Shown here: piece by piece, positions 4,085 to 43,879 of the stretch
How the letters are laid out: each line of letters begins with the position of its first letter
Numbering within the stretch: the stretch's first letter is position 1
DNA from: an uncultured Candidatus Saccharibacteria bacterium
Lineage (GTDB): Bacteria > Patescibacteriota > Minisyncoccia > UBA6257 > 2-01-FULL-56-20
NCBI GenBank assembly: GCA_964365185.1
Contig: CAYIOP010000002.1
Span: 2,684-66,683 of the forward strand
Direction: 5' to 3'
DNA length: 64,000 nt
Position numbers and translations under genes: made by a program
Notes under the pieces: model-generated
The model's database searches: none
Told to the model about the DNA's origin: nothing
What the model saw: the letters and a program-made list of their open reading frames with translations, nothing else

Positions 4085-4354
4085 AATGTTTAGCGCTAAA
4101 CATTCACTTTTCTTTTATCAGCCGATAAGTCGATAAAACCTACGTTTTTTGAAAAAACACTCAAAACAATGTTTAGCGCTAAACATCGATAATTAATCCA
4201 TAAACCGATAAGCCCGTAGAATCTAGATTTTTGCGAATTTTACTGAAAACAATGTTTAGCGCTAAACAATTTCTATCGTAGTAATCCGGCAAAATATACT
4301 ACTATATATAGTATTGCCGCATTTCCGTATATTAAGATGTTTAGCGCTAAACAT
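4085..4354. promoter_or_regulatory. array of four near-identical 18-20-bp perfect palindromes (A)ATGTTTAGCGCTAAACAT(T) with ~84-bp period, in the ruvA/yraN divergent intergenic region
   Basis: Copies at 4085-4104, 4169-4186, 4252-4268 (one mismatch) and 4337-4354. The sequence between copies is also partly repeated (ccgataag..aaaacaatg). Candidate operator array. Confidence 0.45.
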
Positions 4355-4822: not shown

Positions 4823-4869
4823 TTTTCTTTCCTCTTTATTCTTAATTCTCTATTCTATATTCTGTTAAC

Positions 4870-8740: not shown

Positions 8741-8816
8741 ACCATCCTACTTGGGACTTATTGATAATTGCGAATTGATAATTGGTAATTGGAATTTTAT
8801 TACCCTCATTCCTATT

Positions 8817-10122: not shown

Positions 10123-11490
10123 CTACTTATTATTAAGGAGCGACTCCTTAATCATGATAATTTTTTGATTAAACGGAGAATTCTTATTAATTTCCTGGTT
10201 TATTTTCTCAAAAGAGTGAATTACGGTTGTGTGGTCTCTTTTTAACTTTTCCCCAATGTATGGGTAGGACATCCTCAGGATTTCCCGAAGTAAGTACATT
10301 GCCACTTGTCTTGGCTCAACCATTTCCTTTTTTCGCGACCTACTGACCAAATCCGGCAATTGAATGGCATAAAAATCTGCCACCGCTTTTAAAATTTGAT
10401 CATCAGTAATTCGGCCAAAGAAATTTTGAGTTGTTTTTTCTATAATTTCTTCCACTACTTTCTTGTCGATCTCTCCACCCTTACTGTCTTGATAAAACAC
10501 AAGCTTATTTACCACCCCCTCTAATTCTCTAATATTTCTCTGGATAGAATGAGCCACTAAATCAATTACTCCCTCCGGCAATTGCCGATTTGCGGCTTGC
10601 AAACGATTTTTTATAATTGCCACCCTCATCTCGTAATCAGGATAACTAATATCCACCGTTAGCCCTCCGTCAAACCTCGACCTTAGCCGTTCTTCAAGGG
10701 TTGGGATTGATTGCGGCGGCCGGTCTGAAGAAATAATGATTTGTTTGTTGTTTTCGTAGAGCGCGTTAAAAGTATGAAAAAATTCTTCCTCGGTTTTTTC
10801 TTTGCCTCCGATAAATTGAATATCGTCGATAATGAGCACGTCGCAATCTCGGTATTTTTTCTTGATATCCTCCATTCTTTTATTGCGTATCGCCCACACC
10901 ACATCGCTGGTAAATTTCTCCGAAGAAACATATCTCGACCTAAGTTTGCCGCCATATTTAAATTTGATTTCATTGCCCAGCGCCTGAAGCAAATGGGTCT
11001 TACCCAGGCCCACTCCGCCATAAATAAAAAAAGGATTATATTTTGAACCCACCTCTTGGATAATCGCCAAGGCGGCCGCATGAGCCAATTCATTTGAGGA
11101 TCCCACCACAAAAGAATCTAAAGTATAACGAGGATTAAGATTTGTCTCGGGATCTACTCTTACTAAATCCAAACCCGCCTGGCTTTCTAGCCGGCCCATA
11201 TCCACGCTAATTTCCAAAGAAGATTTTTTGTTTAGCTTGGGTTCGTGATTAGTAACAATAAATTCCAGTTTTTTGGCTGAGCTATCAAAATTTCTTAAGA
11301 TTCCTAAGATATTTTTTTCGTATTTATTCTCCACCCATTCCTTAGCAAAGTTATTAGGTAGGGCAATATAAAAAATTCCCTCCTTCTGATCCACTAGTTG
11401 GCTATTCTTGAGCCAAGTCACAAAGTTAGCTCTTGAAAGCTGGATCTCCATCTCACTTAAAGTTTGTTGCCAAAGTTGATTTAGATCCAT
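10123..11490 (-). CDS. dnaA: chromosomal replication initiator protein DnaA
   Basis: AAA+ Walker A GGVGLGKTHLLQA, Walker B LIIDDIQF; sensor motifs; domain IV QVAMYLLRE...HTTV. Confidence 0.9.
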   Translation of the reverse strand: MDLNQLWQQTLSEMEIQLSRANFVTWLKNSQLVDQKEGIFYIALPNNFAKEWVENKYEKNILGILRNFDSSAKKLEFIVTNHEPKLNKKSSLEISVDMGRLESQAGLDLVRVDPETNLNPRYTLDSFVVGSSNELAHAAALAIIQEVGSKYNPFFIYGGVGLGKTHLLQALGNEIKFKYGGKLRSRYVSSEKFTSDVVWAIRNKRMEDIKKKYRDCDVLIIDDIQFIGGKEKTEEEFFHTFNALYENNKQIIISSDRPPQSIPTLEERLRSRFDGGLTVDISYPDYEMRVAIIKNRLQAANRQLPEGVIDLVAHSIQRNIRELEGVVNKLVFYQDSKGGEIDKKVVEEIIEKTTQNFFGRITDDQILKAVADFYAIQLPDLVSRSRKKEMVEPRQVAMYLLREILRMSYPYIGEKLKRDHTTVIHSFEKINQEINKNSPFNQKIIMIKESLLNNK

Positions 11491-16033: not shown

Positions 16034-16219
16034 TTTAACTTTTTAATTATACCAGCTTTCTTCTTTGTTTCTAAACTGATAATTATCCACCATACTCCCT
16101 TCTGTTTTTGAAAATTGGGCATTGCTTACCCGCCGAAATCTTGATGAAGGCGGGATAATTGAAAATTTCTATCGTTTCTCCGTTGTATTACCACTGTATT
16201 TCTATGGCCTCTCTATTTT

Positions 16220-19447: not shown

Positions 19448-19924
19448 AGAGCTAAAAACGAAAAACTAAAAACGCAAAGTAAAGAATTAAGGGTTACCCT
19501 TTCTCTTTTTAAGGGTTAAGATGCTGGAGCCAAGAATATTAGCGATTTCAGTTGTTTCTTGTATCAATAATTCAACCTCTTCTAGGTTAGCTTTCTTAGC
19601 ATCTCTAAGTAAATACAGCCAAAACTTGCTCTCGTTGGCGGATTTTAAAGCATAACTAAAAAAATTAGTGAAGTCCTTTCTCGTGCTTCCAGCTTGAGCT
19701 TCAATAATATTCGCGCCTATACTAGTAGCGCTTCTCAGTAATTGCTTCGCGATTATTTGAACCGCTAAATCTTTTTTATCGAGGTTATCAATAAATTTTA
19801 TAATCTTCAAAGCCAATGAATAAGATTTCTTTTTTGAATCCATTCTTATTTTATATCTTTACACTTTTCGTTTTTAGCTTCTAATTAAATTCTACTTTAC
19901 GTTTTTCGCTTTTCGTTTTTAGCT
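19448..19924. mobile_element. IVS-like cassette: four-helix-bundle gene bracketed by ~30-bp imperfect inverted repeats
   Basis: Left IR agctaaaaacgaaaaactaaaaacgcaaagtaaag (19451-19484). Right IR ctttacgtttttcgcttttcgtttttagct (19896-19924). An extra direct copy cttttcgtttttagct lies at 19864-19880. Confidence 0.4.
19487..19843 (-). CDS. four-helix-bundle protein (23S rRNA intervening-sequence protein family)
   Basis: LAVQIIAKQLLRSATSIGANIIEAQAGSTRKDFTNFFSYALKSANESKFWL is the characteristic family core. Confidence 0.8.
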   Translation of the reverse strand: MDSKKKSYSLALKIIKFIDNLDKKDLAVQIIAKQLLRSATSIGANIIEAQAGSTRKDFTNFFSYALKSANESKFWLYLLRDAKKANLEEVELLIQETTEIANILGSSILTLKKRKGNP

Positions 19925-20484: not shown

Positions 20485-20520
20485 CTATCACCTTTCGTCT
20501 ACAACCTAACACCTAATTTA
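20485..20520. repeat. heptamer-tract repeat (tctatcacctttcgtctacaacctaacacctaattt)
   Basis: Intergenic, upstream of the VirB3-like gene. Confidence 0.4.
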
Positions 20521-24307: not shown

Positions 24308-26714
24308 CTCCGTCGCAATAAAACTTAGACGTTGGCTCTAAATATGAACTGTTTATATCAGCCCTCCATTTCTTTATACCCTCCAATCTCTCGTTGGCAT
24401 CTGATAAAGATAAACTAAGCATTTCAAAATCAAACCTAGTTTCTAACGATTGATTTAATTCTCGTACTTGCGAAGTGCTGGTGGTATTTTGAGCTTCATT
24501 GATAAAGTTATTGAGCCATGTGATCGAAGAACTCGCTTTATTAATTTCTTGTTGGAGTATAACTGGCTCTCTTGTTTCATAGTTCTTAATAGCAATTACC
24601 ATATTCGATAATCTAATAGGATCCCTATTGTCAGGTGGTCCATAATCATCCGCGCATAATACAAGCGATCTTTTCAGCACGTCAATGGTTAAAGGTATTT
24701 CCGGTAAATAAGAGCTATATTGGGCAAGAGTCAGGACTAGAATTTCTCGATAACCCTCTGCCAATTTTATCAAAGTGCTGGTCGGCTGAACTGAATTAAT
24801 CTCATTAATTTCTTGCGCGTCGCGAACGCAATCCCGATATTCCTGCGACTCCAAATTATAAGTGGCGCAAGTGGTTGTATAATCTTCTACTTCGTTTCGT
24901 CTATTTGAAACCAAAGCTAACCCTTCCGCTCCTTTTTGAAACATTTTATTAATTAAAGAATCCACAAAAGCGGTCGCAATCGCTATTAAATCATTGGAAT
25001 TAACAATCCAATCCAGATGTGCTCCAAGCGCTCTGTCGAGTGTCTCTGCCACTGCTTTGCCTGGTGTGGTATCTTCCCAGCCGTCTTGCGGGCAAACGTT
25101 AAACCATTTTAGTCCATCTGAATCCTGCTCTATCGGACCGATGTAATCTACTCCTGTCATTTTAGCTACTGCTTTTGCATCTTCCTCATCATTACCACTT
25201 AACGAACCTAATCTGGCCTCAACTTCTATAAAATCAATTGTTTTTCTCTTCTTACAAACTCGAGTTGTTAAAAATCCTTGGCTTGAACCGACTTTAAGCT
25301 GTTCTGCTTCTGCTTGCTTGGCGGATTTAGCCAGCGCCAAGTCGCTTAATTCAATCACCACTCCAAAATAATTATTCTGGGGTTTTAATACTTTGATATA
25401 ACTCTCAATTCCTCCAGCCCTAAAGTCATCATAAAAATCTTTTATATTTTCCGTCGCTTCATTCAGAGTGCATTTGAATTGTTTTTGAGTTCTTCTTTCT
25501 TCATTGCCCCGGGGAATTTCAAAACTTTTTATTATTAATCCCCTAAACCGTGAACAAAGCACTCCGGGCACAGTGATATTTGCCACCGCGCTTGAGAAGG
25601 TATTCACCGCGGCGTCTTTTAGAAAACCCGGGAAGTCCTGAACAAATTTTGGTTTACCGCCGCCCTGAATCCAATTGGTCGTTTGCTTCACAATCATATC
25701 TATTAGTTTCTTTTTAAGTTTTTCAGTTATTACTTGTTTAATCACTTTCCAAACATCACGCGCAAATATCTGAATATCGAAAACTATATCCCCAAACCCC
25801 AAAAATGCGTGAGCTTTCTTAATTGAAAAAATATTTACTAGAAATGAAATTGCTCCGTTCTGATTTTCTCCGCTCGAAAATTTATTTAATGCTTCGGCTT
25901 TTTTAAATTCATCTTCAAATTTACCAATCGCCTGATTGTAATTTTCTTCCTGCAGTCCAAAAACCAAACCGGTTTTAACCGGGTCAATTTGATCTTGAGC
26001 CAAAGTCAAAAAGTTTTTCTGATACAAAATAAGCTCCAAAAAACTTTTATGGAAATTAGCGAGCGGCTCCGGCACCTTAAGTGTTTTGGTTTTAATTATT
26101 GTTTGATCCAAAGCCAGCTCCACCGAACCCATAACTGTCTCTGGCGACGACTCGCTCAAAAAATTTGATAACCCGGTTTTAACAAAATTTTGTTCAATGA
26201 TTTCATTAAAGTTAGCAATATATTGAGCAACATCTTCCTGACTGGAATTTTTAATTATTTTAAAATCATTACTTTCTTTTTCTAATTCCCCCCTAACTTT
26301 ATTAATTTCCTCTCCAATTGCTTGAGGATTAGATATTGCCGCGGCCGAAGCGATTACATCTTGAGTTACGACATTCACCTTGTCAGAGATTAAACCCCCT
26401 TCTTCGGGATTTAGCGTTGCCATCTTTTCAGTCAATTTTCGCGCCAGATTTTCTGTTAGATTAGAGGGGTCTTCAGCCGGAGGCAACTCAACTTCACTAT
26501 TTTGAACCAGCGCCTCTGGTTGTTGAATTAGTGTTTCAATAAAAGCGCTTTTATTATTTTGACCATTTTCGGCTTTTGTCCCGGCTTCTATTTCAAAATC
26601 ACTATTTATGGTTGGTTTTTTTGAGTCCAATAAGCCGCCTAAAACAAAAGTCAACGAGCCAGCCATCAGCGCAAGTAGCAAAAAACTGGTGATGAGTTTT
26701 TTCGGATCAGCCAT
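24285..26714 (-). CDS. large secreted/surface hypothetical protein (T4SS-like cluster)
   Basis: 809 aa, N-terminal signal/TM, no recognisable catalytic motif. First gene of the minus-strand cluster. Confidence 0.4.
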   Translation of the reverse strand: MADPKKLITSFLLLALMAGSLTFVLGGLLDSKKPTINSDFEIEAGTKAENGQNNKSAFIETLIQQPEALVQNSEVELPPAEDPSNLTENLARKLTEKMATLNPEEGGLISDKVNVVTQDVIASAAAISNPQAIGEEINKVRGELEKESNDFKIIKNSSQEDVAQYIANFNEIIEQNFVKTGLSNFLSESSPETVMGSVELALDQTIIKTKTLKVPEPLANFHKSFLELILYQKNFLTLAQDQIDPVKTGLVFGLQEENYNQAIGKFEDEFKKAEALNKFSSGENQNGAISFLVNIFSIKKAHAFLGFGDIVFDIQIFARDVWKVIKQVITEKLKKKLIDMIVKQTTNWIQGGGKPKFVQDFPGFLKDAAVNTFSSAVANITVPGVLCSRFRGLIIKSFEIPRGNEERRTQKQFKCTLNEATENIKDFYDDFRAGGIESYIKVLKPQNNYFGVVIELSDLALAKSAKQAEAEQLKVGSSQGFLTTRVCKKRKTIDFIEVEARLGSLSGNDEEDAKAVAKMTGVDYIGPIEQDSDGLKWFNVCPQDGWEDTTPGKAVAETLDRALGAHLDWIVNSNDLIAIATAFVDSLINKMFQKGAEGLALVSNRRNEVEDYTTTCATYNLESQEYRDCVRDAQEINEINSVQPTSTLIKLAEGYREILVLTLAQYSSYLPEIPLTIDVLKRSLVLCADDYGPPDNRDPIRLSNMVIAIKNYETREPVILQQEINKASSSITWLNNFINEAQNTTSTSQVRELNQSLETRFDFEMLSLSLSDANERLEGIKKWRADINSSYLEPTSKFYCDGDEPAATG

Positions 26715-26774: not shown

Positions 26775-26850
26775 ATCTATCACCTACTGCGTCCGTCCGA
26801 AGCTTTAAGCGAAGGCGGATAACCTATCATCTAAAACCTCTCACCTAACT
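26775..26850. repeat. intergenic copy of a ~36-bp core repeat (ctactgcgtccgtccgaagctttaagcgaaggcgga) flanked by heptamer tracts
   Basis: The core at 26784-26819 is almost identical to the core at 27051-27086 inside ksgA. Confidence 0.5.
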
Positions 26851-27682
26851 CTTTCGTAATTTTAATGATTTCTTCAACCCCTAAATCTTGAGGCCTAAGA
26901 TTAAAAGCTAATCCCAATTTCTCCAAACCCTCTTTAATTTTTGATCGATCAAGTTTTAACCCTTGTTTTAAGTTGTTTTCAATCGTTTTTCTTGGTTGCT
27001 GAAACAGAATTCGCACCATCTCATAATAATTTTTTCTCCCTACCTTTAACCTACTGCGTCCGTCCGAAGCTTTAAGCGAAGGAGGATCGCCTATCACCTT
27101 TAACCTAATCACGGCCGACTCCACCCCCGGCTCCGGCTTAAAAACCGATCTGGGCAAAGTTAAAATTATTTCGGGAATTGCCCAAAACTGGATTGAAGCC
27201 GCCAACCTATTCATTTTAGGTGGCTGGGCGATGATTCTCTCCGCCACCTCCTTTTGAATTGTCAAAACGCAAACCTCCGGTTTATTTTTAAGTTCTCCAA
27301 TTTGCCTCAAAAGATATCCAGTCAAATAATATGGAATGTTACCTACTAATTTATAAACTTTACATTTTTCGCTTATAGCTTTAAGTTCTTTTCTTACGTC
27401 TCCTTCAATAATTTCTATATTTTTATTTTCCTCGAATTTTTTTTTTAGTATTTGCACTAATTGTTCATCCCTTTCAATCGCAATAATCTTAACACCTAAC
27501 ACCTGCCTGCCCGCCACAGCTTTAGCGACGGAGGGACACCTAACACCTAATTCCTCCGTCAACTCTCCATGCCCCGCTCCTATTTCAATCACTGTTTCTC
27601 CGGTCTTTAACTCCAAAGCCGCCACAATTTTTTTAATGGCCTCATTGCTTTTTAAAAAATATTGTCCCAATTTTTTCCCCAT
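26831..27682 (-). CDS. rsmA: 16S rRNA (adenine1518/1519-N6)-dimethyltransferase KsgA/RsmA, carrying two in-frame repeat-element insertions
   Basis: KKLGQYFLKSNEAIKKIV, EIGAGHGELT and VGNIPYYLTGYLL align to KsgA. The extra 19-aa segments GVRCPSVAKAVAGRQVLGV and IGDPPSLKASDGRSRLKVG are absent from E. coli KsgA and are encoded by the dispersed repeat cores. Confidence 0.8.
   Translation of the reverse strand: MGKKLGQYFLKSNEAIKKIVAALELKTGETVIEIGAGHGELTEELGVRCPSVAKAVAGRQVLGVKIIAIERDEQLVQILKKKFEENKNIEIIEGDVRKELKAISEKCKVYKLVGNIPYYLTGYLLRQIGELKNKPEVCVLTIQKEVAERIIAQPPKMNRLAASIQFWAIPEIILTLPRSVFKPEPGVESAVIRLKVIGDPPSLKASDGRSRLKVGRKNYYEMVRILFQQPRKTIENNLKQGLKLDRSKIKEGLEKLGLAFNLRPQDLGVEEIIKITKELGERF
27040..27112. 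repeat. in-frame repeat insertion 2 in ksgA (core 27051-27086, flanked by direct repeats AGGTTAAAGGT on the coding strand)
   Basis: Near-identical to the intergenic core at 26784-26819. Confidence 0.5.
27491..27550. repeat. in-frame repeat insertion 1 in ksgA (core ctgcctgcccgccacagctttagcgacggaggga, flanked by 13-bp AGGTGTTAGGTGT direct repeats)
   Basis: Divergent relative of the 36-bp core with the same flank architecture. Confidence 0.5.
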
Positions 27683-27751
27683 TGATTAGATTTTCTAAAT
27701 TCTATTTTTAGTTTTTATCTCCACCGTATCTCAAATGTATTTCTATTGCAT

Positions 27752-27780
27752 CTCTATAACCTATAACCTAACACCTAATC
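27752..27780. repeat. heptamer-tract repeat (tctataacctataacctaacacctaatcc) in the ksgA-uvrD intergenic region
   Basis: Same CACCTAA-type heptamers. Confidence 0.4.
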
Positions 27781-29682
27781 CAAAGTAATGTATCTCTCCT
27801 CATCTCTCAAGTTTGAAGCCACTTCGAATTTCATCGCTTCTTCTGATAGCTCGCTTAAAAATCTCGACGGGATATCGTAAAAAGATAAAAACAATTTTTT
27901 TCGCGCTCGGGTCATTGCCACATATAAAAGCCGCCTCTCTTCTTCGATGGCATTTTGAGTTTGAAATGAACGGTGGTGGGGGAGTACGCCTTCATTTATG
28001 CCCGCGACAAAAACATTATCAAACTCTAGTCCCTTCGCCAGATGAATCGTCATCAAATTCACCGTCGCCTTGCTCTTTGCTATTTGCCTGTCCCGAGTAA
28101 TGCCGAAGGGCGATTTGCTATTTGTGACATTGTCCGTCGCTTGCAATAAACTCGCTCGTTCCAAAAAATCTTCCACACTCTTAAAATTTTCGGCAAAATT
28201 TAAAAGTTCCAATATGTTTTCTTTCCGATCTTCGGGATTTTCAAAATTCTTGTCGAGATAACCAAAATAATCCATTTTATCGATAAATTTCTTGATTATT
28301 GCTGCTGGCTCTGCCTCTTTAAAATCGCCAATTTCGCGAACGAACCTTGAAAAACCTGCCTTTTTCAGGAATTTCGACAATCGCTCCCGGCTTAGCTCAT
28401 CATCTCTATTAGAAATGTATCTTAAAGCCGCGAGCACATCTTTTACCTCTCGGCGTTCGTAGAATTTGAGTCCGCCGAAAATTTGATAAGGCAGATTACT
28501 TTCTATGAGCGCTTGCTCAATCGGCCGCGACTGCGCGTTGGTCCGATAAAGAACCGCAGTTGATTCATTTTTATCTTTAACCTTTAATCTATCACCTATC
28601 ACCTGTTCCACAATCCACTCCGCTTCATCAATTTCTCCGCCGGTTTCTTTAAGGATTATTTTCTCTCCTTTTGAATTGTTGGTCCAAAGAGTTTTATCTT
28701 CCAATCCTTTTGGTTTCTGAAAATTATTTTTAATTAATGATGAAGCCGCCTGAATTATATTTTGAGTGGAGCGATAATTTTCACCCAAAAAAACCGTCTG
28801 GCTTCTTGACCAGTCCTGAGCGAAATTTAAAAAAATATCTATTTTAGATCCTCGCCAGCTGTAGATTGTTTGGTTGTGATCGCCCACCACGCTTAAATTT
28901 TGATTTTGGGTTGAGAGCAATTTAACCATTTCATTTTGCGCACCGTTGATATCTTGATATTCATCAACCAAAAAATGAGAAAATCTTTTTTGATATCTCT
29001 TAAGTACCTCCGGTTTTTGTTTAAACACTAAAACCACCTTTTGAATTAAATCATCAAAATCAAAAGCATTATTTTTTTTAAGCTCAATCTCATATTCGCT
29101 TAAAGCTTTTTCTATAATTTCATTTTGAAAGTTTGATTTTTTGTCTTGTAGCGAGATTTCATTTTTAATCATCGATACTTCGCTCATCAAATCTCCCGGC
29201 TTCATTTTTATTTTATCTTCTGAGCGCTTAGCTATTTTTTTAAATAATTGAAAAGAATCATTGTCATCGAAAATCGCGAAATTTGGTTTGCGGTCGCAAA
29301 AAATGGCAACTTCTCGCAAAATTCTGGCGCCGAGCGAATGAAACGTTCCTATAAATGGCGCCTGGCGATTTGCGCTTTGCGATAAGCTTTTTGTTACTCG
29401 CGCTAGCATTTCTTCGGCGGCTTTGTTGGTGAAAGTTAAGGCGCAGATTTTTGAAGGCGGTACGCCGTTTTTCATCAGATAAACAATTCTAGCCATTAAG
29501 GTTTTAGTTTTGCCGGTTCCTGCCCCAGCCACAATTAAAAGGGGATATCCCGGAGCTGTGGCCGCTTTAAGCTGTTCTGGGTTTAATCCTAAATTTTTTA
29601 TCCCACTATCCTGATCTGCCATAAGGTTTGATTTTTTAACTCCCCACCCCTTTATAAAAGAGCGAAGGTTGATTTTTAGCAT
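27775..29682 (-). CDS. UvrD/PcrA/Rep-family ATP-dependent DNA helicase
   Basis: Walker A IVAGAGTGKTKTL; motif II DEYQDINGAQ; LYRTNAQSRPIEQAL; C-terminal YVAMTRARKKL. Confidence 0.85.
   Translation of the reverse strand: MLKINLRSFIKGWGVKKSNLMADQDSGIKNLGLNPEQLKAATAPGYPLLIVAGAGTGKTKTLMARIVYLMKNGVPPSKICALTFTNKAAEEMLARVTKSLSQSANRQAPFIGTFHSLGARILREVAIFCDRKPNFAIFDDNDSFQLFKKIAKRSEDKIKMKPGDLMSEVSMIKNEISLQDKKSNFQNEIIEKALSEYEIELKKNNAFDFDDLIQKVVLVFKQKPEVLKRYQKRFSHFLVDEYQDINGAQNEMVKLLSTQNQNLSVVGDHNQTIYSWRGSKIDIFLNFAQDWSRSQTVFLGENYRSTQNIIQAASSLIKNNFQKPKGLEDKTLWTNNSKGEKIILKETGGEIDEAEWIVEQVIGDRLKVKDKNESTAVLYRTNAQSRPIEQALIESNLPYQIFGGLKFYERREVKDVLAALRYISNRDDELSRERLSKFLKKAGFSRFVREIGDFKEAEPAAIIKKFIDKMDYFGYLDKNFENPEDRKENILELLNFAENFKSVEDFLERASLLQATDNVTNSKSPFGITRDRQIAKSKATVNLMTIHLAKGLEFDNVFVAGINEGVLPHHRSFQTQNAIEEERRLLYVAMTRARKKLFLSFYDIPSRFLSELSEEAMKFEVASNLRDEERYITLD
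28576..28606. repeat. heptamer-tract sequence inside the helicase gene, encoding IGDRLKVKDKNES (ctttaacctttaatctatcacctatcacctg)
   Basis: Resembles an 'empty-site' version of the ksgA insertion flank (GGTGATAG-ATTAAAGGTTAAAG). Confidence 0.3.
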
Positions 29683-34639: not shown

Positions 34640-34740
34640 TGACGCTGTTAGAAACCCAATTCTCTATAAGGGTTTTGTAAGTAATTTTATGACTTAGGCC
34701 TTTTGGCTAGGAAGAAAATTACTTACAAAACCTGTAATTG
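34640..34740. repeat. conserved hairpin element (18-bp perfect stem ggttttgtaagtaatttt / aaaattacttacaaaacc; loop contains TTGGCTAGGA), copy A
   Basis: The loop and surrounding sequence are shared with 43743-43879. Confidence 0.4.
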
Positions 34741-37092: not shown

Positions 37093-38622
37093 TTAAATTA
37101 TTTCTCTCAAAAGGCTTCTGCCGGTCATCTCATCCGGCTTATTAACACCCATTAATTCCAAAATTGTCGGTGCCACATCCGAGAGCACTCCGATTGTCTC
37201 CGAATTAAAGCTTTGCCAATTAATAAACCTTTTATTTTTAAATTCTTTAGCCACTAAATAAAAAGGCACCGGGTTGGGGTCATGTTGGGTCTCTGCTTCG
37301 CCCGTCAAAGGGTTCATCATTTGTTCCACATTGCCATGGTCTGAAGTAATAATAATTGTTGACTCTGTTTGAATCCCGGTTTTAATCACTCTCCCAATTT
37401 GAGTGTCGATAATTTTTACCGCTTCCAAAGCCGCTTGGTAATTACCAGTATGGCCAATAGTGTCTGGGTTAGCATAGTTGGCTAAAATAAAATCAAAACC
37501 TCTGGCTTCAAGCGATTGAATTATGCGGTCAGTGATTTCTCCAGCCCTTAACTCTGGGTGTTCATCAACGTGCGGCACTTTAATTGAAGGAATAAAAACC
37601 CGGTATTCTTTTGGAAAAGGTTGTTCTATGTAGCCGTTAAAAAAATAAGTTACGTGAGCGTACTTGTAACTCTCGGAAATTCGAAGTTGGGTTTTGTCTG
37701 CCTCGCTCAAAATTCTACCTAAGGGATATTTAATGTCTTCCGGTGGAAACGCCACCGGCACATCAAATTGGTCTTCATATTTAGTCATGGTGGCGATATA
37801 AAAATTCTGGAATTTTTGAGTCGGGAATTTATCAAAATCTTTTAAAATAAACGATTCGCTTATCTGCCGAATGCTATCTTCTCTAAAGTTGAAGAAAATT
37901 ATTGATTCTCCGTCTTTAATTTGGCCATCTTTTTTGAGCGCTAAAGGCGGCAGAAATTCTTCATTTAATTTTTTTTGATAGGTTTCCTGAATAATCGGAC
38001 TCACCTCTTCTGTGATTTCTCGAGCGGGCGAGACCATCGTTTCATAAGCCCTCTCGGTGAGTTTCCAGTTTTTTTCCCTATCCATTGCGTAATAACGGCC
38101 CACTAAAGTCGATAATTTTTCTTTTGGAATTTTATCCAGCGCTTTTTCCAGCCGGAAAGGAGTGGCATCTTTGCCGTCCGAAAAAAGATGGAGCTTAACT
38201 TCCACTCCTTCCTGTTCTCCCATCCGAATTAAAGCCAAGAGGTGATCTAGGGATGAGTGCACTGTCCCTTCGGTTAAAAGTCCAATCAAGTTAACTGCTG
38301 ATTGGTTTTTTTTGGCAAAATCAAAAGCTCCTTTTAAAGCCGGGTTTTTAAAAAAACCTTCATCTTTAATAGAGATAGAAATTCTCGGAAAATATTGATA
38401 AATTACCTTACCAGACCCAATCGTCAAATGTCCCACCTCGCTATTGCCGATTTCTCCCCAAGGTAAACCGACGCTGATTCCCGAGGCCTGCAAACTGGTA
38501 ACCGGAAAGTTTTCCTCGAGCCACCTAAAGGTTTCTGGTTTAACCACGTGAATAGGATTGGATTGGTTTTTCTGCCCTAAGCCCCAACCATCAAGAATGA
38601 TGAGCAAAACAGTTTTTTTCAT
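37093..38622 (-). CDS. gpmI: 2,3-bisphosphoglycerate-independent phosphoglycerate mutase
   Basis: ILDGWG N-terminal motif, GHLTIGSG..., 509 aa, typical iPGM. Confidence 0.9.
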   Translation of the reverse strand: MKKTVLLIILDGWGLGQKNQSNPIHVVKPETFRWLEENFPVTSLQASGISVGLPWGEIGNSEVGHLTIGSGKVIYQYFPRISISIKDEGFFKNPALKGAFDFAKKNQSAVNLIGLLTEGTVHSSLDHLLALIRMGEQEGVEVKLHLFSDGKDATPFRLEKALDKIPKEKLSTLVGRYYAMDREKNWKLTERAYETMVSPAREITEEVSPIIQETYQKKLNEEFLPPLALKKDGQIKDGESIIFFNFREDSIRQISESFILKDFDKFPTQKFQNFYIATMTKYEDQFDVPVAFPPEDIKYPLGRILSEADKTQLRISESYKYAHVTYFFNGYIEQPFPKEYRVFIPSIKVPHVDEHPELRAGEITDRIIQSLEARGFDFILANYANPDTIGHTGNYQAALEAVKIIDTQIGRVIKTGIQTESTIIITSDHGNVEQMMNPLTGEAETQHDPNPVPFYLVAKEFKNKRFINWQSFNSETIGVLSDVAPTILELMGVNKPDEMTGRSLLREII

Positions 38623-38908
38623 GTATTTTGTGAGTAACTCTAATTTTAAAAGATTTTTGGCCGGTTGACTAACTTTAAAATCAGCCCTATACTTTATAGG
38701 TTCCTTTTAAGCGATTTTAATTTCCAGATTGAAGAATGACGGTTAATTCTAGCTTTATTAAATTCTTGAAAAAGCAATAATTCCCTCTTTATTATCAGGG
38801 CGCTTTTTACGTTTAAAAGGTGACACTAACTAAAAAGTCACAAATTTTTTATTCCTAAAAAATTCAAACACTTATCTAAGTTAATGAAGAATTTAGGGAA
38901 TTTATTAC

Positions 38909-40435
38909 ATGTCCGAATTCTTACCCCTTCTTATCGGGGGCGCCTTGGTTCTAGGAGGAGCGGCGGGTTATTTTATTCGCCACATCTTTTTTGCTCGTAA
39001 ATCAAGTTCTATCGAGCATAAAATTATCTCTAAACTTGGAGAAGCCGAAGAGCGGTCAAAAAAAATTATTTTAGAAGCCGAAAGTAAGGCCGTCGATCTT
39101 TTAGGCGACGTTCGGCGTGAAGGTCGCGAACAAAAAACTAAACTTGATAGTTTAGAAGAAAGGATTTTGCACCGAGAGGAAATTTTAGACAAAAAATTAG
39201 TTGCCCTAAGCAACGACGAAAATTCTTTAAAAGCTCAAAAAGAAGAAATCAAGAAAAAAGAATTAGAAATTGAGAATGTCAAAAACGATTTGGAAAGTCA
39301 ACTTGAGAAAACTAGCGGCCTAACTCGAGATGAAGCCCTTAAGCTTTTAACTGGAGAAATTAAAGAAAAATATAGCCGTGATTTAGCCGATTCCATTCAA
39401 AAACTAGAAAAAGAACGAAAAGAAGAAATCGAAAAGAAATCCAGCGAGATTATCGCTTCGAGCTTGGAACGCTATGCCCGATCTCAGGTGGCCGAACTCA
39501 CCACCACCTCTTTTTCTTTGGCGGACGAAGAATTAAAAGGAAAAATTATTGGTCGGGAAGGCAGAAATATCCGAGCGCTCGAAAGAGCCACCGGCGTTGA
39601 ATTTGTAATTGATGAAACTCCAGATAGTGTGGTGATTTCTTCTTTCGATCCCATTCGAAGAGAGGTTGCTCGCATGGCTCTTGAAAAACTAATCAAAGAT
39701 GGCCGCATTCAACCCGCTAAAATTGAAGAAAAAGTTGAAGAAGCCAAACAAGAACTTAATAAACGCATTATGGAAATTGGCGAATCCGCCACTCAGGAAG
39801 TTGGTATCTATGATTTACCCAAAGAAATTATCCAGCTTTTAGGTCGCCTGCATTTTAGAACTAGTTATGGCCAAAACGTCCTCCTCCATTCTATAGAAAT
39901 GTCTTATCTAGCCGGCATGATGGCCTCTGAACTGGGTTTAAATGTAGAAGTCGCTAAAAAAGGCGCCCTGCTTCACGATATAGGCAAAGCTATTGACCAC
40001 GAAGTTGAGGGCACTCACATTGAACTTGGCCGTAAAATTTTGAAAAAATACGGCGTTAACGACTTAGTGATTCAAGCTATGCAATCGCATCATGAAGATT
40101 ATCCCTACGCGATTCCCGAAGCGTACTTAGTCACCACTGCTGATGTTTTGTCGGGCGCGAGGCCTGGCGCCAGGCGTGATTCTCTTGAACATTATATTAA
40201 ACGTCTCGGTGACTTGGAAAAAATTGCCTCTGAATTTCCGGGTGTCAAAACCTCTTACGCTGTTTCCGCTGGTCGGGAACTTAGGGTTTTTGTTGTTCCG
40301 GAAAAAATAGATGACTTTCGGGCGTTGGAGATGGCTCGAGAAATTGCCAATAAGATTCAATCTGAGTTAAAATATCCTGGTGAGATTAAAGTCGTGGTGA
40401 TTCGCGAAATGAGAGCGGTTGAGTATGCCAAGTAA
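38909..40435 (+). CDS. rny: ribonuclease Y
   Basis: N-terminal TM, coiled-coil, KH domain (GKIIGREGRNIRALE), HD domain (LLHDIGKAIDHE...H). Confidence 0.9.
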   Translation: MSEFLPLLIGGALVLGGAAGYFIRHIFFARKSSSIEHKIISKLGEAEERSKKIILEAESKAVDLLGDVRREGREQKTKLDSLEERILHREEILDKKLVALSNDENSLKAQKEEIKKKELEIENVKNDLESQLEKTSGLTRDEALKLLTGEIKEKYSRDLADSIQKLEKERKEEIEKKSSEIIASSLERYARSQVAELTTTSFSLADEELKGKIIGREGRNIRALERATGVEFVIDETPDSVVISSFDPIRREVARMALEKLIKDGRIQPAKIEEKVEEAKQELNKRIMEIGESATQEVGIYDLPKEIIQLLGRLHFRTSYGQNVLLHSIEMSYLAGMMASELGLNVEVAKKGALLHDIGKAIDHEVEGTHIELGRKILKKYGVNDLVIQAMQSHHEDYPYAIPEAYLVTTADVLSGARPGARRDSLEHYIKRLGDLEKIASEFPGVKTSYAVSAGRELRVFVVPEKIDDFRALEMAREIANKIQSELKYPGEIKVVVIREMRAVEYAK

Positions 40436-40442
40436 TTAGATT

Positions 40443-40529
40443 ATAGGTGATAGGTTTTAGAATTTTGGCGCTAAAAAGCAAAATAGTGGAATTTTTCTAA
40501 CACCTAACATCTAACACCTAACCTCTATG
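40443..40529. repeat. heptamer-tract repeat pair in inverted orientation (ataggtgatagg ... ctaacacctaacatctaacacctaacc) immediately upstream of the 40527 start codon
   Basis: Same CACCTAA family as the other heptamer tracts. Confidence 0.4.
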
Positions 40530-41930
40530 TTCCTAAAACTCTCCAAATTTTTTATTTATCTTTCTGTTTTTAGCGTCGTTATTGTTTTGACCTCGACTTT
40601 CTTTCCGTTTATCGGTGGCAAGTATTATTTTTTCCGCGTTTGCGTTGAATTAGCTCTTATTTTCTTTTTACTGTTTTGGGCTTTTGAGGCTCAAGGAAGA
40701 GAAATTCTAGACCGGTTCCGTAAGATTTCTCGAGAGCCACTTTTTATCGCCACCTCCCTTTTTGTTTTGTTTTATCTCTTAGCTTCAATTTTTGCCTATA
40801 ATTCTCACGCTGCTTTCTGGTCCAATTATGAGCGAGGCGAAGGAGGGTTTCAAATGTTCCATTATTACATTTTTTTTGTTTTATTACTTTTGATTCTTAA
40901 AGAACCAAAAGAATGGAAAAATCTTTTTATTTCTTCGGTCGTGGCAGCCGTTTCAATGATCGGCTACGGCCTCTTAGCCAATCTTGGTCTTGTTTCCCAG
41001 TTTATTGATCCATTCATGGGGGAACCTCCTTCCGGGTTTTTAAAACGACTCATTCAGCCCCGATTTCAAGGTTCTTTGGGCAATCCCGCTTATGTCGCCC
41101 CTTATTTAATGTTTGCTATGTTCTATGGCGCCTATCTTTGGATAAGCTCTAAGTGGCGAAAAAATTGGCGACGACATTTATTTTTTGGGGCTCTTATTCT
41201 TTTTTTCTTATCCTTTCTTATACTGTCTCAAACCCGAGGAGCTTTTTTAGGATTAGCCATCGCTATTTTGATTGGGCTAATTTATCTTATCATTAGTTTT
41301 CCGGCCATTAGGAAAAAAACTCTTATAATTCTAGCTGTTTTAATTTTTATTGGAGGCCTTTTAATTGGTTCTCGCCATAATTCTTTTGTTAAAAATCTTC
41401 CTGGCGGGCGATTTTTTGAAATCTTTGATCTCGGTGTTAAAACTGATACGGTTCAAACCCGTTTTTGGACTTGGGGCTCGGCTTGGGCCAGTTTTAAGGA
41501 ACGCCCAATTTTGGGTTGGGGTCCTGAAAATTTTAGTGCGGCTTTTGATAAGTATTTTGATATCCGCCATTATTCTCCAGGCAAAAATTCCGAAACGTGG
41601 TTCGACCGAGCTCACAGCGTTATCTTTGATTACTTAGCTGAAACCGGACTTTTAGGATTTTTAAGCTACCTGAGCATTTTTGTAATTTTCTACTGGAGAG
41701 TTTTTTCTCGCCCCAAAAATAAATCTGAAATGAGAGCTAACTCTCTAGAGCCATCAGGCGATTTAAATTTTAGAAATAATTTTCTTCTTCAAACTCTTTT
41801 CGTTATCCTTCCGATTGGTTATTTGGTTCAAGGCCTAGTTCTTTTCGATGTCTTACCAATTTATGTAAACCTTTTTATCTTTTTAGCGTTCAGCGTTTAC
41901 TTATTTACTTTCTATGAATCAAAATCTTAA
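40527..41930 (+). CDS. O-antigen ligase/polymerase-like polytopic membrane protein
   Basis: ~12 TM; TRGAFLGLAIAILIGL and a large periplasmic loop typical of the Wzy_C/O-antigen-ligase family. Confidence 0.45.
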   Translation: MFLKLSKFFIYLSVFSVVIVLTSTFFPFIGGKYYFFRVCVELALIFFLLFWAFEAQGREILDRFRKISREPLFIATSLFVLFYLLASIFAYNSHAAFWSNYERGEGGFQMFHYYIFFVLLLLILKEPKEWKNLFISSVVAAVSMIGYGLLANLGLVSQFIDPFMGEPPSGFLKRLIQPRFQGSLGNPAYVAPYLMFAMFYGAYLWISSKWRKNWRRHLFFGALILFFLSFLILSQTRGAFLGLAIAILIGLIYLIISFPAIRKKTLIILAVLIFIGGLLIGSRHNSFVKNLPGGRFFEIFDLGVKTDTVQTRFWTWGSAWASFKERPILGWGPENFSAAFDKYFDIRHYSPGKNSETWFDRAHSVIFDYLAETGLLGFLSYLSIFVIFYWRVFSRPKNKSEMRANSLEPSGDLNFRNNFLLQTLFVILPIGYLVQGLVLFDVLPIYVNLFIFLAFSVYLFTFYESKS

Positions 41931-43742: not shown

Positions 43743-43879
43743 TAGCGCTGTTCGGAAATCATATTATACTTAATTTTTTTCTACCGGTTCTCGGAGAGAT
43801 TTTCTGATTTAGACCCTTTGGCTAGGAGGAAAATTTCTTCAAGAACCTACGGTTATTGGGACTTTTCGAACAGCACTAT
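43743..43879. repeat. conserved hairpin element copy B (loop gatttagaccctttggctaggagg) nested in the outer inverted repeat gctgttcggaaa / tttcgaacagc
   Basis: Shares the loop TTGGCTAGGA(G/A)GAAAAT and surrounding sequence with 34640-34740. Confidence 0.4.

Follow-up and report, generated by a model that had tools for sequence, protein, structure and literature searches.

How does the gene for an essential rRNA methyltransferase come to carry, within its reading frame, two copies of a short repeat that also lies in the intergenic DNA beside it? The question is raised by ksgA/rsmA in a 64,000-nt stretch of contig CAYIOP010000002.1 (the window), part of a genome of about 40% G+C from the Parcubacteria/Patescibacteria of the candidate phyla radiation (CPR). 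The coding sequence (26831-27682, minus strand, 283 amino acids) is intact and holds two in-frame repeat copies, as seen from the list of open reading frames (ORFs), Pfam, Protein Data Bank (PDB) structures, orthologues and an AlphaFold model. Its product matches Pfam RrnaAD at E = 3e-42 and PDB KsgA structures at 1e-28, and its closest relatives are Wolfebacteria- and Liptonbacteria-type proteins with about 50-60% identity. Our answer is that a hairpin resembling REPs (repetitive extragenic palindromes) has probably been inserted in frame at two ksgA loops by way of heptamer tracts, leaving the gene intact.

Three copies, all on the minus strand and each found by a sequence pattern and a covariance model, lie in or next to ksgA. 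Copy C has a 31-nt core, CCCTCCGTCGCTAAAGCTGTGGCGGGCAGGC (27505-27535), encoding approximately CPSVAKAVAGRQ (residues 49-60); this stretch is part of the loop that joins helix alphaA, which follows motif I, to strand beta2, and we call that loop site 1. Copy B has a 33-nt core, CCTCCTTCGCTTAAAGCTTCGGACGGACGCAGT (27053-27085), encoding PPSLKASDGRS (residues 200-210) in the interdomain linker ahead of the C-terminal domain, site 2. Copy A, with a 33-nt core, CCGCCTTCGCTTAAAGCTTCGGACGGACGCAGT (26786-26818), is intergenic and lies 13 nt past the ksgA stop codon. On the coding strand, the core of copy C stands between AGGTGTT AGGTGT and AGGTGTT AGGTGTT, that of copy B between GGTGATAGGCGAT and AGGTTAAAGGT, and that of copy A between GATGATAGGTTAT and AGGTGATAGATT. 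A first-pass annotation, made from the letters of this DNA, had proposed that ksgA carries two in-frame members of a repeat family with a near-identical intergenic copy adjoining it, and this holds: the frame is intact, the 36-nt cores at 26784-26819 and 27051-27086 are identical at 35/36 positions, and no long ORF overlaps copy A, whose core was correctly placed outside any other coding sequence. The likeness of A and B extends into their flanks, with 87% identity over 63 nt (26777-26839 versus 27044-27106).

The degenerate 19-nt pattern TCGCN{0,1}TAAAGCTKYGGMSGG matches exactly three sites in the window (26793-26812, 27060-27079 and 27510-27528), all in one orientation, with 0 matches in 100 shuffles. 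A covariance model built from unrelated genomes recovers copies C (39.2 bits, E = 4e-7), B (27.0 bits) and A (22.5 bits), and also a fourth, intergenic member, CCCGCC-TTC-ATCAAGAT-TTC-GGCGGG-TAAGC (16124-16159, minus strand; 27.5 bits, E = 2.5e-4), in which the outer stem and the tail are kept and the apex is divergent. A scan for GC-rich islands returned mainly ordinary coding patches and no additional members. An independent Logan assembly, L139, contains copy C and the copy B core with 100% identity.

The segments GVRCPSVAKAVAGRQVLGV (residues 46-64, 27491-27547) and IGDPPSLKASDGRSRLKVG (residues 197-215, 27038-27094) had been read as two insertions of 19 amino acids each. Orthologue alignment confirms extra residues at both loops, but only the central 11-14 are extra. 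The gaps relative to B. subtilis KsgA measure 14 amino acids at site 1 and 8 at site 2. The linker is 13 amino acids long in 15 of 36 CPR orthologues and 24 here, a net gain of 11 that equals the 33-nt core of copy B; site 1, which takes up 9-11 amino acids in the shortest of these orthologues, takes up 23 in the window. Both inserts fall on sites that vary in length among the 36 proteins. Judged from the alignments, the net inserts are about 11 amino acids (33 nt) and about 12-14 amino acids, with the heptamer-coded flanks occupying native loop positions.

The rest of the protein is well preserved. Every invariant column of a 37-protein KsgA alignment is retained, and the catalytic motifs are intact. 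In the AlphaFold model the mean predicted local distance difference test score (pLDDT) is 87.9, with values of at least 90 nearly everywhere outside the inserts; chain ends aside, the dips are confined to residues 50-60 and 200-211, and values below 50 to residues 53-56, 202-206 and 208-211. The expected placement of the inserts in loops is thus borne out by the gaps relative to solved KsgA structures and by the low confidence of the model there, and the enzyme looks intact in this model, with two added floppy loops. Further variation of the same kind is seen in orthologues. Four of them (P0031, P0102, P0115 and P0116) have a third insertion hot spot between PP and MN (columns ~223-283), where 18-36 added residues of the form NPVR....SNG look like another palindromic repeat family in frame. 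The KsgA P0026 of the relative L123 has two more hairpins within the linker tract.

Heptamer tracts and the hairpin family

All three ksgA-associated copies lie within short tandem heptamer tracts of the TTAGGTG type. That such tracts bracket the copies had been proposed from the letters alone, and counting supports it: the window holds 13 tracts of period 7, against 1.66 +/- 1.4 in shuffles, and the rows of Tandem Repeats Finder agree. Copy C is preceded by the coding tract AGGTGTT AGGTGT (27536-27550) and followed by the coding tract AGGTGTT AGGTGTT (27490-27504), both on the minus strand and both reported by Tandem Repeats Finder with period 7. Copy B has heptamer-type flanks on the same strand, TTAGGTTAAAGGTGATAGGCGAT on its 5' side (27086-27108, coding ..RLKVIGD) and AGGTTAAAGGTAGGGAG on its 3' side (27036-27052, coding RLKVGR). 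The tract 5' of copy A (26819-26850, minus strand, Tandem Repeats Finder) provides the last ksgA codons and their TAG stop, and likewise a tract between uvrD and ksgA (27754-27778, minus strand, Tandem Repeats Finder) provides the TAG stop of uvrD. The same heptamer family forms an intergenic tract at 20491-20516 (minus strand) and two tracts in inverted arrangement in the stretch that separates the RNase Y gene from an O-antigen-ligase-like gene (40436-40527, Tandem Repeats Finder).

Two roles had been considered for the heptamers, target duplications or tracts between which the element hops, and the second is the one that stands. The uvrD-like gene contains a tract (28569-28604, minus strand) made of GTGATAGGTGAT joined to AGATTAAAGGTTAAAG, which can also be written as GGTGATAGGTGAT joined to AGATTAAAGGTTAAAG: these are the flanks of copy B, its 5' flank included, free of the hairpin core. 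Its product reads VIGD followed directly by RLKV, where KsgA reads VIGD-PPSLKASDGRS-RLKV. Because the uvrD-like gene has the flanks of copy B without the core, the heptamers are a pre-existing tract and not target duplications. The tract sits between the conserved EAEWI and AVLYRTNAQ motifs at native length, and three UvrD proteins align there with short gaps only. A parallel case is found in the relative L122, where the UvrD and KsgA tracts have 21 identical nt in common and the KsgA tract alone contains a 30-nt hairpin, exactly on a unit boundary.

Other heptamers are also present in the window. A second family (ATTTGCT/CTCTTTG, plus strand) is found inside two genes, a Mur ligase gene (2245-2264 and 2434-2462) and the uvrD-like gene (28070-28087); its tract in UvrD falls on one more loop of variable length (RDRQIAKSKATV). 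Other families form intergenic tracts at 4826-4863 and 8766-8792.

The hairpin itself belongs to a family with a wide distribution, so it is not peculiar to this genome. Its consensus is CCCKCC-TTC-GC-TAAA-GC-TTC-GGMGGG-CARGC, with a 6-bp stem, a non-complementary TTC/TTC pair, a GC-TAAA-GC apex and a CARGC tail on the 3' side; the element measures 31-33 nt and has a G+C content of ~65-70%. A scan of 596 Gb, with one genome per species, gave at least 120 loci, where we estimate that a 19-mer of such degeneracy would by chance give on the order of 100 matches; none of the loci listed comes from the genome of the window. The family matches are nevertheless not random, because the upstream arm, which was not part of the search, is conserved and complementary: CCCKCC is 86-98% conserved in the 103 matches listed and pairs with the 3' GGMGGG, and the tail CA(A/G)GC follows the stem in these matches. 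Among them the middle stem pair covaries (G-C 38, U-A 31, unpaired 26; 0/500 shuffles as high), and 93% of the outer-stem cells are paired. Hosts among the matches listed include cultured Bradyrhizobium, Mesorhizobium, Taklimakanibacter and Chryseolinea serpens, many Bacteroidota and ~35 Patescibacteria loci, and identical 26-mers are shared by Patescibacteria, Bacteroidota, Alphaproteobacteria and viral contigs. The hairpin occurs in 14 IMG/VR viral contigs, with compensated arms, and dimers are seen in few loci only (L078, L126 and L130). BLAST of the consensus against PLSDB plasmids gave partial matches at chance level only, and GenBank phages gave no match to it. Rfam models matched nothing in the 19-45 kb part of the window at E <= 1, and in nine canonical loci none matched the hairpin at E <= 5; a full-text literature search found no paper with the core sequence or the encoded peptides.

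Insertion into coding sequence is common in the CPR. Stop-free stretches of at least 120 amino acids contain 22 of the 36 Patescibacteria matches listed, 15 in sense and 7 in antisense orientation, and all four stop-free frames are used (PSFAKASEGK, PPSLKLRRA, RRSFSEGG and PAEALAKAG). By NCBIfam, the host genes encode IleRS, TopA (topoisomerase I), LigA, GltX (two copies), Rho, ThrRS, UvrC, Fpg, XerC/D and Alr; for LigA, Rho and UvrC, the profile alignment falls into parts on either side of the insert. Two Saccharibacteria IleRS genes have one insert in common, identical at 24/26 positions between flanks that are ~83% identical; since it diverges about as fast as its flanks, such inserts can be inherited and then drift. 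A metagenome scan for the A/B subtype added one groundwater contig, in which a CsaA-like tRNA-binding protein contains VPSLKASDGKP; its alignment to solved structures ends before the insert and is weakly informative.

The family is also found next to tRNA-like sequences. Locus L111 (1726-1800) has a truncated tRNA-Pro-like sequence with the hairpin exactly in the anticodon loop, and an intact tRNA-Pro (1811-1886) follows directly downstream. In six Bacteroidota loci (L006, L019, L034, L054, L067 and L102) the hairpin stands right after a sequence resembling a tRNA 3' end and is followed by a T run, a terminator-like arrangement; of these loci only L006 was scanned with ARAGORN, which called no tRNA there.

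Origin of the copies and competing explanations

We propose the following course of events. A very small non-coding, REP-like hairpin would have been inserted at the DNA level into existing heptamer tracts, which would already have been present at two permissive surface loops of ksgA, with a further copy entering the tract just downstream. In an essential gene, an insertion would survive only if its length is a multiple of three and it falls in one of the four stop-free frames. Because only such insertions survive, translation would pass through the inserts and give KsgA about 11 and 12-14 more residues, which would be disordered, while its Rossmann fold and C-terminal domain would stay intact. 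The copies may stem from a transposition-like spread or from recombination among the tracts; they would be neutral or slightly deleterious passengers, and the mobilising activity would act in trans. The best candidate for the mobiliser, though at rather low probability, is a transposase of the RAYT (REP-associated tyrosine transposase)/IS200-IS605 type, which would recognise hairpins in single-strand DNA and whose gene would lie in another part of the genome or on a phage.

Mobility is suggested by the presence and absence of the hairpin, and by its opposite orientations, at orthologous sites. The gene order around ksgA is common to the relatives L122 and L138, and L123 has ksgA and the downstream cluster. 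At site 1 the hairpin is in sense orientation in the window and in L122, in antisense orientation in L123 and absent from L138; it is likewise absent from 8 of the 36 orthologues, those with the shortest site 1 (9-11 amino acids). This pattern points to independent insertion events at site 1.

Several observations weigh against this proposal. First, the words selfish and mobile, as used in the first-pass annotation, describe an inferred property: among the ORFs of at least 90 amino acids in the window, none codes for a transposase, a reverse transcriptase or an integrase. Second, the landing sites are not general: only ~10% of the family members elsewhere lie in heptamer tracts (heptamer-periodic flanks are found for 10.5%, against 1.9% of control positions), and insertions between heptamer units have no discernible target-site duplication. 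Third, copy density is low, with 4 per 64 kb in the window and only 4 added copies in 218 kb of CPR loci, and folding of the copies with their flanks is not better than that of shuffles (z from -1.5 to +0.9). Finally, the best non-self KsgA, about 56-60% identical, is too distant to reveal an empty ksgA site in the nucleotide sequence, translation of the inserts is a prediction from the reading frame, and local duplication alone could have produced copies A and B.

The last point leads to the strongest alternative, which we consider a real but clearly less probable one: local duplication or gene conversion only, in which A and B come from one recombination or slippage event between heptamer tracts and C is an older, independent relic. 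Copies A and B are only 267 nt apart, and their flanks are alike as well as their cores, so for this pair, descent of one from the other by a local event is indeed most likely. A reciprocal product is seen in L139, a Logan ERR3858116 contig that is identical to the window over 26782-27106 except for a precise 267-nt deletion between B and A. The deletion leaves a hybrid B/A element and a KsgA that is cut short behind residue 211; on the downstream side, the flank matches the window at 99.8% (6 differences in 3097 nt). L139 represents either a repeat-mediated deletion in a related population or an assembly collapse at k = 31 over a common run of 34 nt, and it thus indicates that these repeats can recombine, or at least confuse assemblers. 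The lack of a transposase in the window also fits a local origin. However, local duplication leaves unexplained copy C and the copy at 16124, the same 26-mer across phyla and in other CPR genes, and the opposite orientations at one ksgA site in L122 and L123.

A second alternative, which we regard as unlikely, is that the hairpin is a selected RNA element, kept in place for what it does in the transcript, where it might for instance stabilise the mRNA, mark a processing site or end transcription. In copy C, as in four other members, U.C/U.U mismatches have given way to G.U pairs that function on the sense strand only, members with G at alignment column 12 all have T at column 25, Bacteroidota hairpins stand directly after tRNA genes and before a T run, and orientation inside CPR genes leans to sense (15 against 7); moreover, REPs are widely thought to act as RNA (PMC3733652). 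On the other hand, both orientations do occur inside genes, the window copies lack a U tract and none is terminator-like, and their folding does not exceed that of shuffles. The orthologous IleRS pair also speaks against selection on the RNA, as its insert diverges like the flanks and the changes break pairs.

Somewhat less probable still is that hairpin and heptamer tracts are two parts of one undescribed sequence-homogenising system. It is brought up because the tracts at the UvrD, KsgA and IleRS loops keep their length, whereas their units differ between genomes, and because unlinked tracts of one genome match, over up to 21 identical nt. In one and the same UvrD loop the units are GTGATAG/TTAAAGG in the window, CAATTTT in L122 and GAATCTG in L138; the tract at KsgA site 1 has AATTTTC in both L122 and L123. 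The Saccharibacteria IleRS genes of L037 and L052 have four-unit tracts at the same site and of the same length, with GWTTCAA in one and RAATCAY in the other, between flanks that are ~83% identical; comparison of the two sequences suggests concerted evolution of a coding heptamer array. Homogenisation within arrays can account for the unit differences at the UvrD and IleRS sites. Tracts at unlinked genes within one genome also have units in common, and this sharing needs exchange between loci. Such a system might work by templated rewriting or conversion across loci, or as a molecular drive like that of uptake sequences, and the hairpin might be its mobile or nucleating part, or the binding site of a widely shared protein.

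Two further explanations have next to no probability. Ordinary lineage-specific loop variation, with the intergenic resemblance due to chance or composition, would fit the differing KsgA loop lengths across the CPR and is refuted by the 35/36 identity to the intergenic copy, by the absence of pattern matches in shuffles and by the fact that a model trained on foreign genomes recovers the copies. An artefact of assembly, or a chimera, which the 34-nt identical run could promote in assemblers with k = 31 (the L139 deletion may be a case), is countered by the full-length KsgA with a conserved C-terminal domain that the window version yields, by the 100% identity of copy C and the copy B core in an independent assembly and by comparable inserts in many unrelated assemblies. 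Insertion of a REP-like hairpin into heptamer tracts therefore remains our preferred explanation, and the earlier reading of the locus is partly supported by it: it was right in kind, and needs correction in the insert boundaries, the role of the heptamers and the family membership.

Other features of the window

The ksgA gene has the uvrD-like helicase gene on one side and an 809-amino-acid gene of unassigned function on the other, with a type-IV-secretion-like cluster adjoining. Its stop codon occupies 26831-26833 and the next gene starts at 26714, which leaves a spacer of 116 nt.

At 19450-19924 lies a gene for a 118-amino-acid protein of the '23S rRNA intervening sequence protein'/Avd-like four-helix bundle type (PF05635, E = 3e-22), bracketed by 32-nt inverted arms that are 91% complementary and consist of AAAAACG heptamers. 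The relatives L122, L123 and L138 have a single T-rich heptamer tract in the PrgI-TraC spacer, where the window has this gene; for this reason the gene looks like a cassette inserted into a tract. We considered the PF05635 (Avd-like) gene (19487-19843) as a partner of the hairpin and rejected it, as 1.04 Mb of hairpin-bearing loci contained one weak homologue.

Two intergenic 74-nt long hairpins (34660-34733 and 43775-43848) have the apex UGAYUUAGRCCYUUUGGCUAGGARGAAAAUU in common, and their stems differ yet pair. On the plus strand they fold with z-scores of -5.6 and -4.5, a stability that 0/200 shuffles attained, and Rfam has no match to them; they could represent a small structured RNA or a further hairpin element. 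Between ruvA and a UPF0102 gene, a spacer of 338 nt contains four exact copies of the 16-bp palindrome TGTTTAGCGCTAAACA, 83-85 nt apart (4087-4353), which look like an operator array or a parS-like centromere; the general form of parS is TGTTNCACGTGAAACA. A 40-nt direct repeat, 78% identical between its copies, is intergenic at 16177-16216 and 27718-27757, each time just behind a gene end or a heptamer tract, with the following gene downstream of it.

At ~38.7 kb the genes change from the minus to the plus orientation, and the cumulative GC skew reaches a minimum at ~40 kb (window positions ~38600-40530), which together suggest a replication origin. The dnaA (10123-11490)-dnaN genes are ~28 kb from this minimum, and the inverted TTAGGTG-type tracts at 40436-40527 are near it.

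Meaning and comparison with known repeat systems

These findings extend to the CPR/Patescibacteria the repeat 'decoration' of proteins that is known from Rickettsia palindromic elements (RPEs) and from in-gene REPs. CPR genomes are among the smallest and most streamlined, yet their core genes tolerate in-frame insertions of a 31-nt hairpin, and such inserts explain some of the lineage-specific loops inserted in CPR proteins, which have been a puzzle. Peptides such as PSFAKASEGK, PPSLKLRRA, RRSFSEGG and PAEALAKAG flag the repeat and not protein homology, which makes them a confounder of annotation and alignment, and the repeats can cause deletions or misassemblies, such as the 267-nt loss that truncates KsgA in L139. 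With identical 26-mers in distant phyla and heptamer tracts as landing sites, the movement of tiny elements between lineages becomes a testable question.

Among known systems, the REPs are closest. The element is an imperfect palindrome of the 20-40-nt class with a GC-rich stem, whose length lies in the REP range of 5-13 bp, and it has the order of parts of the GTAG-3 type, namely a stem, a non-complementary trinucleotide and a short GC-flanked loop (PMC3733652). Di Nocera et al. (2013, PMC3733652) describe REPs and RPEs inside genes for UvrABCD, ligase, helicases and tRNA synthetases, where translation turns them into added residues; REPs are mostly found 3' of genes, and their ends sometimes supply TAG stops (PMC3733652). 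Sub-families with complementary stem changes, G.T pairs, a location mostly 3' of genes and the supply of stop codons are further likenesses. In contrast to REPs, the family has no GTAG or CGTC tag and instead a CAAGC/CAGGC tail in the 103 matches listed. GTAG does occur in copies A and B, 4 nt 3' of the stem, but it is formed at the heptamer junction and on the opposite side from that of canonical REPs. No RAYT gene is found among the window ORFs of at least 90 amino acids, and the copy number is low, with two of the four copies in one gene, whereas REPs are high-copy, mainly extragenic and often arranged as head-to-head dimers. CPR copies, moreover, are mostly in genes, and identical 26-mers are common to several phyla.

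With RPEs, to which the element had first been likened, it shares palindromic repeats lying in frame in essential, functional proteins, typically at the surface. The comparison is apt as a mode of action and fails by sequence and size. RPE-1 is roughly 100-150 bp long; the present element has 31-33 nt, a 6-bp stem, an unrelated sequence and a host range of many phyla. RPE-4 and RPE-6 are CGTC-tagged REPs with 8-9-bp stems that start with A/T pairs (PMC3733652). A literature search found no paper joining RPEs and the CPR.

The nesting of a hairpin within heptamers has a likely counterpart in cyanobacteria. The small dispersed repeats (SDRs) of Nostocales are reportedly mobile-looking units 21-27 nt long, capable of forming hairpins and often placed within heptamer repeats, the short tandemly repeated repetitive (STRR) sequences, both in genes and between them. 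If so, their architecture is that of copies A, B and C and of the copies in L052, L122 and L123; the difference is that only ~10% of the present family lies in heptamer tracts. Heptanucleotide direct repeats are known, with function unexplained, from the TAACTGA repeats of Beggiatoaceae and cyanobacteria (PMC4679880), and a literature search found no paper linking them to the CPR. The tracts described here resemble STRRs and long simple sequence repeats as tandem 7-nt arrays above chance, mostly near gene ends and with a genome-typical unit. They differ in that several lie inside conserved genes at native loop length and serve as landing sites of the hairpin, and the unit is another one.

Miniature inverted-repeat transposable elements (MITEs), such as Correia/NEMIS, Nezha, RUP and ERIC, are likewise non-autonomous, structured, dispersed and sometimes located in genes. 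They are 70-300 bp long, with terminal inverted repeats of 15-30 bp and target duplications, and none of this is seen here. An intrinsic terminator was also considered and rejected, as no window copy was called terminator-like and the sequence after the stems lacks T runs. The element is therefore neither an RPE nor a MITE nor a terminator; it is REP-like without being a member of the REPs.

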